Positions 59,121 through 60,143 of a DNA stretch of 64,000 nt are shown here, piece after piece (position 1 is the stretch's first letter; the number at the start of each line of letters is the position of its first letter). The stretch lies in the UHGV virus genome UHGV-0326727; one strand, given 5' to 3'. The position numbers and the translations under genes are program-made. The DNA comes from a virus. The notes under the pieces were generated by a model. That model did not search any database. It saw only the letters and a list, made by a program, of their open reading frames with translations, and was not told the origin of the DNA.

Positions 59121-59193
59121 GCGGGTATAGAGAAAGGGCGTCTCACATGTCTCATTAGCATGGTATCGGCAGGTTCGACTCCTGCACCCGCCT
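59121..59193 (+). tRNA. tRNA with CAT anticodon (Met or Ile2), irregular acceptor stem
   Basis: D-stem gaga/tctc, anticodon stem catgt/gcatg with loop ctCATta, T-arm gcaggTTCGACTcctgc; 5' boundary ambiguous (1-72 or 7-66 mismatch); CCA encoded. Confidence 0.55.
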
Positions 59194-59202
59194 CCAATTT
59201 TG

Positions 59203-59262
59203 CAGAAGACCGTATTCAGCAACAAACTACTTTTTGCGGATAAAAGAAAAAACACGGTCTGG
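59203..59262 (+). ncRNA. conserved stem-closed element B
   Basis: 5' cagaagaccgtattcagcaa and 3' acggtctgg; terminal helix agaccgt/acggtct (covaries with A and C). Confidence 0.45.
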
Positions 59263-59273
59263 CAATGTATTAA

Positions 59274-59347
59274 GGTTAGGAAGCACATAAGGTATGTGCG
59301 GTCGCCTGTTAAGCGAATGGCACAGGGTTCGAATCCCTGACTAACCG
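59274..59347 (+). tRNA. tRNA-Asn (anticodon GTT)
   Basis: Acceptor ggttagg/actaacc (one mismatch), D-stem gcac/gtgc, anticodon loop ctGTTaa, T-loop TTCGAAT; CCA encoded. Confidence 0.65.
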
Positions 59348-59359
59348 CCAAATTTAAAT

Positions 59360-59444
59360 GTGTCGTTATCCCGTAGATGGTAGCGGTGGGGACTGTAAAT
59401 CCCTTGTCATTGAGACTCGGTAGGTTCGACTCCTACACGGCACA
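59360..59444 (+). tRNA. tRNA-Tyr (anticodon GTA), class II long variable arm
   Basis: Acceptor gtgtcgt/acggcac, anticodon stem gggga/tccct with loop ctGTAaa, long variable arm, T-arm gtaggTTCGACTcctac; CCA encoded. Confidence 0.7.
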
Positions 59445-59453
59445 CCAAATAAA

Positions 59454-59528
59454 GGTTATGTAGTTTAATCTGGTTAAAATACTCCCCTGTCACGGGAGAT
59501 GATGAGGGTTCAAATCCCTTCGTAACCG
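59454..59528 (+). tRNA. tRNA-Asp (anticodon GTC)
   Basis: Acceptor ggttatg/cgtaacc, anticodon stem ctccc/gggag with loop ctGTCac, T-loop TTCAAAT; CCA encoded. Confidence 0.75.
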
Positions 59529-59618
59529 CCAAATTATAATAAGTATTTCAAGATGATGTTTTGAGAGGGCTATTTAGCCCCTCCCTTAAAGAGTTCTTAC
59601 GAGTATTCTTTAAAGGAG

Positions 59619-59695
59619 CAGAAGACCAAATTCAGCAAGTACGTATGATATTTTCAAGCCAATTTAATTTTGAAAAAATTTAAAACTTGGTCTGG
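59619..59695 (+). ncRNA. conserved stem-closed element C
   Basis: 5' cagaagaccaaattcagcaa and 3' ttggtctgg. Confidence 0.45.
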
Positions 59696-59743
59696 CTCAA
59701 CAAATTTACAGAAGACCGTTTACAGCAAAACTTAAACAATCTA

Positions 59744-59789
59744 TTTCTCCGGTAAAGAAAAGGCGAAGGTTCGATTCCTTCACTCGGCA
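59744..59789 (+). tRNA. permuted tRNA, 3' segment (anticodon arm, variable loop, T-arm, 3' acceptor strand, discriminator A); anticodon GGT (Thr-like)
   Basis: Anticodon stem tttct/agaaa with 7-nt loop ccGGTaa (C at position 33), variable aggc, T-arm gaaggTTCGATTccttc (5 bp perfect), 3' acceptor actcggc, discriminator a. Confidence 0.45.
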
Positions 59790-59792
59790 GAT

Positions 59793-59817
59793 GTCGAGTT
59801 GGTGTAATGGTAGCACT
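59793..59817 (+). tRNA. permuted tRNA, 5' segment (5' acceptor strand, U8, D-arm, position 26)
   Basis: gtcgagt pairs 7/7 (one G-U) with upstream actcggc; tg; D-stem gtgt/gcac with loop AATGGTA; located 3 nt downstream of the 3' segment. Confidence 0.45.
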
Positions 59818-59842
59818 TAAGATGATAAACAACGGTCTGGTA

Positions 59843-59985
59843 ATTATCTTTGTAGATAAGTTATTAAGCTTACCTGTGAGTATGCGACCACAAAGGGTGA
59901 AAGGGTAAATTCTAGATTTAAACCCAACAAGGCACATCGCTACAGACCTTAAGCAAGTCTGGGTAGCTTATCTACAAAGATAATT
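59843..59985. repeat. perfect 18-bp inverted repeat flanking about 107 bp (long hairpin or MITE-like element)
   Basis: attatctttgtagataag (59843-59860) and its exact reverse complement cttatctacaaagataat (59968-59985). Confidence 0.6.
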
Positions 59986-59989
59986 TAAT

Positions 59990-60062
59990 GGAAGTGTAGC
60001 AGAATGGTGATGCGGCAGACTTTTAATCTGACAGGCGATGGGTTCGAATCCCTCCACTTCTA
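59990..60062 (+). tRNA. tRNA-Lys (anticodon TTT)
   Basis: Acceptor ggaagtg/cacttct, anticodon loop ctTTTaa, T-loop TTCGAAT; CCA encoded; same architecture as the CTT Lys tRNA. Confidence 0.65.
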
Positions 60063-60069
60063 CCAATAT

Positions 60070-60143
60070 GGTTCAGTCGCAGATAAGGTAATGCAGGGGT
60101 CTCATAAGCCCTATGAATGTGGGTTCGATTCCCATCTGAACCT
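60070..60143 (+). tRNA. tRNA with CAT anticodon (Met, or Ile2 if lysidine-modified)
   Basis: Acceptor ggttcag/ctgaacc fully paired, anticodon stem ggggt/gccct with loop ctCATaa, T-arm gtgggTTCGATTcccat; CCA encoded. Confidence 0.7.

Follow-up and report, generated by a model that had tools for sequence, protein, structure and literature searches.

Two CAU-anticodon tRNAs in the tRNA array of a Felix O1-like phage: a probable pair of initiator-type and elongator-type methionine tRNAs

The tRNA array of UHGV virus genome UHGV-0326727, of which a stretch of 64,000 nucleotides was analyzed here (the window), contains two different tRNA genes with the anticodon CAU, which raises the question of what each of them supplies to the phage. 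A preliminary description had taken one as a Met tRNA and the other as plausibly a lysidine-modified tRNA-Ile2 reading AUA. What is reported below on sequence features and codon usage, on conservation and covariation, and on class membership as judged by comparison is directly observed, and it points to a phage-encoded pair of methionine tRNAs as the probable answer, one of initiator type (tRNA1) and one of elongator type (tRNA2). The features concerned are as follows.

58867-63205, + strand: tRNA array, 24 ARAGORN calls within the window, all on the + strand
59120-59196, + strand: tRNA1, initiator-type tRNA(CAU), called by ARAGORN, with encoded CCA
60070-60146, + strand: tRNA2, elongator-type tRNA(CAU), most likely tRNA-Met, called by ARAGORN, with encoded CCA
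60148-60223, + strand: tRNA-Ile(GAU), one base 3' of tRNA2, used as internal control

The window derives from a Felixounavirus (Felix O1-like phage), and its tRNA region (58800-63300) is 94 to 98% identical to many Felixounavirus genomes, whose hosts are Escherichia, Salmonella and Shigella. In these relatives the array extends downstream with Ser(GCU) and Cys(GCA) tRNAs, and a third CAU tRNA is absent there. With the exception of tRNA-Ser(UGA), all array tRNAs were read by ARAGORN with an encoded CCA. The two CAU genes had been placed at 59121-59193 and 60070-60143 in the preliminary description; ARAGORN and orthologues in other phages bore them out as two distinct tRNAs, with the slightly different boundaries listed above. 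tRNA2 forms an ordinary cloverleaf (54.3 bits against the Rfam tRNA model).

Rfam and ARAGORN placed tRNA1 in different registers. In the Rfam register, which agrees with the coordinates of the preliminary description, the gene begins at G59121 and A7 is unpaired; in the ARAGORN register there is a U1xC72 mismatch, and position 7 and U8 are separated by an additional A. The latter was upheld by the orthologues in phage T5, in Pectobacterium phage Wc4-1 and in L079 (an 88-kb IMG/VR relative), where the acceptor strand is followed by the connector UA (after UGCGGGU in T5 and AGCGGGU in Wc4-1) or UG (L079). Read in this way, the acceptor of tRNA1 consists of the mismatch and six Watson-Crick pairs, followed by the extra A, U8-A9 and the D stem. 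The pairs G2-C71, C3-G70, G4-C69, G5-C68 and G6-C67 (GCGGG/CCCGC) are identical to those of Escherichia coli metZ (tRNAfMet; MG1655 sequence), and, with the additional A behind position 7 taken into account, the D stem GAGA/UCUC contains A11-U24 and G12-C23. Features characteristic of initiators are therefore present at the unpaired 1:72, at G2-C71, C3-G70 and G4-C69, and at A11-U24 and G12-C23. The preliminary description had remarked on an unpaired acceptor base and on a resemblance to initiator tRNA; the base belongs to U1xC72, and the resemblance goes further than was thought, the T5 orthologue (T5t14) being annotated "initiator tRNA fMet". Among 1,070 bacterial CAU tRNAs, A11-T24 and G12-C23 were complete discriminators of fMet (Silva et al., PMC1635315), and the recognition elements of methionyl-tRNA formyltransferase (MTF) include the 1:72 mismatch and R11:Y24 (PMC9976931; PMC11122139).

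Several features of tRNA1 weigh against its being a working initiator. Its anticodon stem CAUGU/GCAUG contains U29-A41, G30-C40 and U31.G39, so that of the three consecutive G-C pairs that mark initiators at 29-31:39-41 only the middle one is present, as the preliminary description had correctly noted. Further oddities are the anticodon loop CUCAUUA with U37, the discriminator U73 and the extra nucleotide between positions 7 and 8; the variable region has 6 nt. A73 matters for both MTF and methionyl-tRNA synthetase (MetRS). tRNA1 is also a weak match to tRNA models: searched alone against Rfam it reached 28.5 bits (E = 1.5e-4), just below the gathering score of 29, a 6-kb scan with Rfam (E ≤ 1) did not report it, the original tRNAscan table for Felix O1 gives it a score of 28.9, and the record of phage vB_EcoM_E9 has no call for it. 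The objection from the anticodon stem is weakened by previous research on E. coli, in which G30-C40 was the sole essential anticodon-stem pair of the initiator and variants with non-G-C flanks sustained growth, if less well (PMC5389676), and in which initiators without the three G-C pairs initiated efficiently when host tRNAfMet was scarce (PMC3017606).

Borderline or subthreshold covariance-model scores, the missing call in vB_EcoM_E9 and the accumulated oddities would also fit a decaying or nonfunctional initiator-tRNA pseudogene, which would leave tRNA2 as the sole working CAU tRNA. Conservation makes this very unlikely. Among phage records, 279 matched tRNA1 and 212 of these did so at ≥99% identity, with most of the 212 being 100% identical; the gene is better conserved than tRNA2, which matched 308 phage records. 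Orthologues were compared in Felixounavirus, Mooglevirus (Sf17, ESh21), Wc4-1, L079 and T5, with stem pairs counted by positional parse, as the MAFFT alignment misplaces two anticodon-stem bases. Across this set the pairs 27:43, 28:42, 29:41, 50:64 and 51:63 of tRNA1 vary with compensation, giving double changes in the T and anticodon stems across the Ounavirinae and T5, while G30-C40 is invariant. Compensatory stem changes were likewise found in tRNA2 across Mooglevirus, Wc4-1, L079 and T5. At 1:72 the orthologues of tRNA1 retain a mismatch by means of different bases (UxC in Felixounavirus and Sf17, CxC in ESh21, AxC in Wc4-1 and UxU in T5), with a U-A pair in L079. U37 is kept in Felixounavirus, Mooglevirus, Wc4-1 and L079, and in a set of 100 viral CAU tRNAs it was confined to members of Ounavirinae type; the additional A is limited to Felixounavirus and Mooglevirus. 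By comparison of orthologues, tRNA1 varies as a functional tRNA does, with selection acting on the unpaired end as well.

A scan of IMG/VR with the acceptor strands alone, UGCGGGU/ACCCGC (UGCGGGU...ACCCGCNNCCA), returned 58 tRNA-like matches, of which 52 were CAU tRNAs. Judged from these sequences, viral CAU tRNAs with the UGCGGGU/ACCCGC acceptor form a large class. Among 50 distinct class sequences, 46 have G30-C40, versus 20 of 50 other viral CAU tRNAs (Fisher p = 4e-8), a class-wide enrichment that also argues against decay of tRNA1; for A11-U24 the counts are 23 of 50 and 3 of 50 (p = 6.5e-6). Position 1:72 is UxU in 24 of the 50 class members, U-A in 19, UxC in 4 and U.G in 3. The U1-A72 pair in these 19 and in L079, together with the absence of two of the three G-C pairs from tRNA1, could mean that tRNA1 serves as an elongator, or doubles as initiator and elongator like some organellar tRNA-Met, and that the phage has two elongator Met tRNAs. 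In E. coli, mutant initiators whose 1:72 is paired can work in elongation. However, we regard such a role as highly doubtful, as the window phage and its close relatives have a true 1:72 mismatch that selection has maintained, and tRNA1 keeps A11-U24, a tRNAfMet-type acceptor stem and G30-C40.

A bolder proposal, which we consider rather unlikely as it stands, is that tRNA1 is part of a widespread and largely unrecognized class of phage "minimal" initiator tRNAs that keeps phage initiation going once the host initiator has been destroyed or depleted. Members of the proposed class would have U1, pair 1:72 weakly or not at all, share the GCGGG acceptor stem and retain just G30-C40 among the three G-C pairs; at position 39, G frequently takes the place of C (U31.G39 in 23 of the 50 viral class members), and U37 is present in the Ounavirinae. 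The remodeled anticodon stem-loop would then let the phage initiate despite loss of the host initiator, for example through cleavage by VapC. The Shigella and Salmonella VapC cuts tRNAfMet between A38 and C39 (PMC4105405), and the equivalent site in tRNA1 reads U37-A38-G39, next to a stem that also differs. Evasion of nucleases of this kind is an attractive reading that may hold.

For tRNA2, the preliminary description had correctly recorded a paired 1-72 and a GGG/CCC block in the anticodon stem (28-30/40-42). The acceptor contains G1-C72, U3-A70, U4-A69 and C5-G68 and is followed by U73, the D stem GCAG/AUGC contains C11-G24 and A12-U23, and the anticodon stem GGGGU/GCCCU (G27.U43, G28-C42, G29-C41, G30-C40, U31.G39) encloses the loop CUCAUAA. 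The CAU anticodon, the paired 1:72 and a Y11-R24 pair (C11-G24) are those of an elongator tRNA-Met. The E. coli-type Met body, defined by C3-G70, A73 and the TmcA determinants C27-G43, C30-G40 and G44, is not found; the corresponding positions in tRNA2 are U3-A70, U73, G27.U43, G30-C40 and A44. T5 tRNA-Met likewise lacks C3-G70 and C27-G43.

The competing possibility is that tRNA2 is a tRNA-Ile2, whose C34 would be converted to lysidine by the host TilS and which would be charged by isoleucyl-tRNA synthetase (IleRS) and read AUA, with tRNA1 supplying Met. Isoleucine identity in E. coli depends on the anticodon loop and A73 as a strong determinant, plus C4-G69, U12-A23 and C29-G41 (PMC9976931). 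None of these last four elements is present in tRNA2 (U73, U4-A69, A12-U23, G29-C41), whereas all four occur in E. coli ileX and T4 tRNA-Ile(CAU) and three of four in T5 Ile2 and in tRNA-Ile(GAU) of the window; A73, U12-A23 and C29-G41 are common to all four Ile tRNAs compared. The other 22 array tRNAs carry what we take to be the discriminator base of their E. coli counterparts. Only the two CAU tRNAs deviate, both with U73, and the simplest reading of this shared base is a common, anticodon-driven synthetase, MetRS.

In contrast to the IleRS elements, the TilS determinants gave a mixed result when the identity-element check proposed in the preliminary description was carried out. U4-A69 is a negative determinant for TilS, as in E. 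coli tRNA-Met, C5-G68 is a positive one, and G27.U43 is negative for TmcA (PMC2500205). tRNA2 combines U4-A69 with C5-G68, and T5 Ile2 has the same combination; for that reason the TilS determinants were dropped as a decisive test. G27.U43 was also rejected as a signature of Ile2, as KhF1 and Sf17 have A-U in its place and Wc4-1 has G-C.

A number of points speak for Ile2 and against methionine. C5-G68 is shared not only with T5 Ile2 but, like G27.U43, G28-C42 and G30-C40, with E. coli tRNAIle2 (ileX), and U3-A70 replaces the C3-G70 that is usual in Met (PMC1635315). tRNA2 stands one base from tRNA-Ile(GAU), every sense NNA codon except AUA is matched by an array tRNA, so that an AUA reader would complete the set, and the records of KhF1 and UAB_Phi87 label tRNA2 tRNA-Ile (CAU); that of vB_EcoM_E9 labels it tRNA-Met. 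A distance classifier over 48 structural positions separated the two classes only weakly (leave-one-out accuracy 78-85%) and placed tRNA2 slightly nearer to Met (mean distance 20.7) than to Ile2 (22.4); its Met set is biased toward the acceptor stem of tRNA2 by a second IMG/VR scan, and it was given little weight. A published tRNAscan-SE 2.0 analysis of Sf14, a Moogle-like relative, favored Met over Ile2 (45.2 versus 28.6 bits), which is weak evidence in turn, as the top score was for Cys, the two Met rows are nearly parallel and the models fit phage tRNAs poorly.

Relatives of tRNA2 place it with the Met tRNAs of phages. The Wc4-1 orthologue is 93% identical, lies in the same synteny beside Ile-GAU, and combines A73 with the loop found in T5 tRNA-Met, UUCAUAC; the Sf17 orthologue has the loop UUCAUAA. 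Two IMG/VR tRNAs (in L138 and L218) combine the exact acceptor stem of tRNA2 with a UUCAUAC loop and a Met-class D stem. In the IMG/VR arrays with three CAU tRNAs (L039, L062, L053 and L096), one tRNA is of initiator type, one carries four to five of five Ile elements, always with the loop CUCAUAA, and one is Met-like with one to two of five; tRNA2 scores one. The Met-like tRNA of L053 and tRNA2 have U4-A69, C5-G68, G29-C41, G30-C40 and U31.G39 in common. Overall, these comparisons make it quite likely that tRNA2 is an elongator tRNA-Met.

Codon usage points the same way. The preliminary description had supposed that an AT-rich phage would profit from an AUA reader. However, AUA made up 0.49% of codons and 8% of Ile codons in the window (61 open reading frames, 14,764 codons), whereas the same procedure gave shares of Ile codons of 23% in T5 and 22% in T4, both of which carry Ile(CAU) tRNAs. 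The avoidance is roughly threefold, at comparable GC contents of the window, T5 and T4 (0.387, 0.390 and 0.361) and comparable shares of A at fourfold third positions (0.37, 0.36 and 0.37). Other NNA codons are favored in the window (GCA, 46%; CCA, 52%; ACA, 37%; GTA, 33%). In two related Ounavirinae-like loci AUA was absent altogether (0 of 159 Ile codons in L079 and 0 of 107 in L110). Only these two loci, T4 and T5 were used for comparison, as short IMG/VR loci, when sorted by whether they hold an Ile2-like tRNA, gave noisy AUA shares owing to differing hosts and partial arrays. The codons of the phage are those expected of a genome that encodes no AUA reader. Taken with the missing Ile elements, U4-A69 and the placement of its relatives in the phage Met class, this makes an Ile2 identity of tRNA2 unlikely, and tRNA1 is ruled out as the lysidine-modified copy.

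The charging, formylation, P-site use and modification state of both tRNAs are inferred by analogy with E. coli biochemistry. In the favored reading, that of an initiator-type and an elongator-type Met tRNA, the host MetRS would charge both through the CAU anticodon, which is what it mainly reads. tRNA1 would be formylated by the host MTF through its open 1:72, tRNAfMet-type acceptor stem and A11-U24, and would be kept out of elongation factor Tu (EF-Tu) and enter the P site of the 30S subunit, with G30-C40 as its sole licence for the P-site checkpoints. Its efficiency would probably fall short of that of host tRNAfMet, an effect to which U73, U37 and the extra nucleotide could contribute, and it would perform best when the host initiator is scarce. 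tRNA2, with its paired 1:72 and C11-G24, would be brought by EF-Tu to internal AUG codons, and its C34 is probably unacetylated because the TmcA determinants are missing. The phage would then have no AUA reader, and avoidance of AUA by its genes would be in keeping with this.

Both genes are already present in hundreds of GenBank records, and the pair is an ordinary part of a near-complete phage tRNA set, with a variant initiator. The consequence is a modest correction of annotation, as hundreds of Felix O1-like and Moogle-like genomes are inconsistent in this respect (Met/Met, Met/Ile, or tRNA1 missing). If tRNA2 is taken for an AUA reader, analyses of codon adaptation will be distorted, and labeling tRNA1 as ordinary Met hides the fact that these phages, like T5, appear to carry an initiator-type tRNA of their own. 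The Felix O1 genome paper speculated that a Met tRNA could aid initiation. In contrast, the Sf14 analysis and a paper advancing an anticodon-nuclease hypothesis stated that such phages lack, or avoid encoding, tRNA-fMet, and published arguments assume enterobacterial phages without the VapC target tRNA-fMet. Our comparison suggests that this stated absence is an artifact of automatic classification. tRNA1 is also a natural test case for the minimum of the three-G-C motif that an initiator needs.

The array contains further RNA elements and is preceded by a protein gene that may be related to them.

57286-58701, + strand: Ro60-like protein gene, 471 aa, just upstream of the array; Pfam DUF2828 and DUF7788; PHROG 850 "RNA-binding protein"
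59031-59113, + strand: module 1, hairpin-closed, between tRNAs
59198-59267, + strand: module 2, hairpin-closed, with two alleles among Felixounaviruses
59614-59700, + strand: module 3, hairpin-closed
59704-59845, + strand: module 4, hairpin-closed, with a permuted tRNA-like domain

The 471-aa protein belongs to a family that is widespread in phages (3398 matches). No sequence match was found in PDB or NCBIfam, and its likeness to Ro60 emerged only by fold comparison. The AlphaFold model (pLDDT, the predicted local distance difference test, 88.5) matched Ro60/TROVE+vWA structures over its full length in the top 12 Foldseek matches (E about 1e-8), with TM-scores mostly of 0.53-0.66 and of 0.42 for Rsr; the targets were Xenopus and human Ro60, Deinococcus Rsr and the Ro60 of Thermus phage phiLo. 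On the strength of the predicted fold, the protein is a Ro60 homologue.

The four modules share AGAAGACCNNNUNCAGCAA on the 5' side and GGUCUGG on the 3' side (consensus 5' NNNC-AGA-AGACCNNNUNCAGCAA, 3' GGUCU-G-GNNN), and their outer 4 bp covary (UGAC/GUCA, UUGC/GCAA, GAGC/GCUC and UUAC/GUAA). They lie at the same places in Felixounaviruses. Modules 1 and 2 flank tRNA1. A scan of the array against Rfam (E ≤ 1) gave no family for these inter-tRNA modules. We consider the four modules to be candidate Y-RNA-like partners of the Ro60-like protein. The T5 "tRNA-like stable RNAs" were rejected as relatives of the modules, being unpermuted and having no motif in common with them.

The arms of module 4 stand in the order anticodon-like (UUUCU-CCGGUAA-AGAAA), T, acceptor-like (a hairpin of 7 bp, ACUCGGC-AGAU-GUCGAGU) and D (GUGU-AAUGGUA-GCAC), with U-G between the last two. 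As read from this order of arms, module 4 holds a circularly permuted tRNA-like domain in the layout of YrlA-type bacterial Y RNAs (PMC4201824). A covariance model of module 4 recovered Mooglevirus copies with a compensatory change and clear relatives in distant viral tRNA arrays, of which the one in L062 (56.7 bits) differs in every stem yet remains paired and the one in L040 reached 50 bits; some of the lower-scoring matches were tRNA dimers, and these were disregarded.

L250, 1823-1958: module-4 relative, found by covariance model
L251, 1764-1896: module-4 relative, found by covariance model
L062, 4494-4626: module-4 relative, found by covariance model
L040, 12572-12693: module-4 relative, found by covariance model

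A module of this type follows the initiator-type tRNA in the window, in L079 and in L062, and a Ro60-like protein gene is likewise present in L079, L138 and L023, with another at the L062 edge.

Between module 4 and tRNA-Lys, the 148 nt at 59843-59990 (+ strand) fold with a 23-bp closing stem (minimum free energy of -47 kcal/mol, z-score of -5.6, 0 of 200 shuffles as good) and may represent another structured RNA. At 60779-60862 (+ strand) lies a tRNA-Trp(CCA)-like sequence that was missed by ARAGORN and scored 23 bits in Rfam (tRNA-Sec model). An acceptor GUGGGAC/GUCCCAU with G73 and CCA is combined there with a T arm and an anticodon arm ACGGC-CUCCAAA-ACCGU (with C31xA39), and the D region exceeds the normal length by about 7 nt. 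The sequence may be a Trp tRNA that is degenerate or unusual; in these phages Trp is the sole amino acid without a called tRNA. Some Felixounaviruses carry a gene for an HNH homing endonuclease between tRNA-Tyr and tRNA-Asp (PP948675, L001 2171-2599; also MN882542 and PP886228), an insertion that is absent from the window. Like those of T4 and T5, the array is thus subject to invasion by mobile endonuclease genes.

Among known systems, tRNA1 compares most directly with T5t14 (tRNAfM(CAU), NC_005859). Both have the UGCGGGU/ACCCGC strands, a mismatched 1:72, U73, A11-U24, G30-C40, U31.G39 and the same T-loop family, and positions 24-77 of tRNA1 show blastn similarity to T5-like phages (NBSal005 copy). 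Synteny is also similar, as T5t14 lies directly downstream of tRNA-Pro and tRNA1 does so too, with tRNA-Glu between. T5t14 differs in its UxU at 1:72, a normal two-nucleotide connector, A37 (CUCAUAA), the D stem GAUC/GAUC and swapped pairs at 28:42 and 29:41.

E. coli tRNAfMet (metZ/W/V) resembles tRNA1 in pairs 2:71 to 6:67, the unpaired 1:72, G10-C25, A11-U24, G12-C23, G30-C40, G49-C65, G52-C62 and G53-C61. Unlike tRNA1, it has CxA rather than UxC at 1:72, G29-C41 and G31-C39 rather than U-A and U.G, A37, A73, a 5-nt variable region and no extra nucleotide after position 7. Engineered and Mycoplasma-type initiators (Shetty et al. 2017, PMC5389676) rely, as tRNA1 would, on G30-C40 with non-G-C flanks, and variants with pyrimidine-purine flanks (cg/GC/cg) sustain E. 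coli poorly. However, those variants are built on E. coli tRNAfMet and have A73 and A37, and the set excludes the ua/GC/ug context of tRNA1.

For tRNA2, T5 tRNA-Met (T5t01) has the identical D stem GCAG/AUGC, U3-A70, U4-A69 and a 6-nt variable region, whereas tRNA2 departs from T5t01 and the UUCAUAC-loop Met class in its loop CUCAUAA, G-rich anticodon stem, C5-G68 and U73. T4 tRNA-Ile(CAU) and ileX share the CAU anticodon and the loop CUCAUAA with tRNA2 but are set apart from it by A73, C4-G69, U12-A23 and C29-G41.

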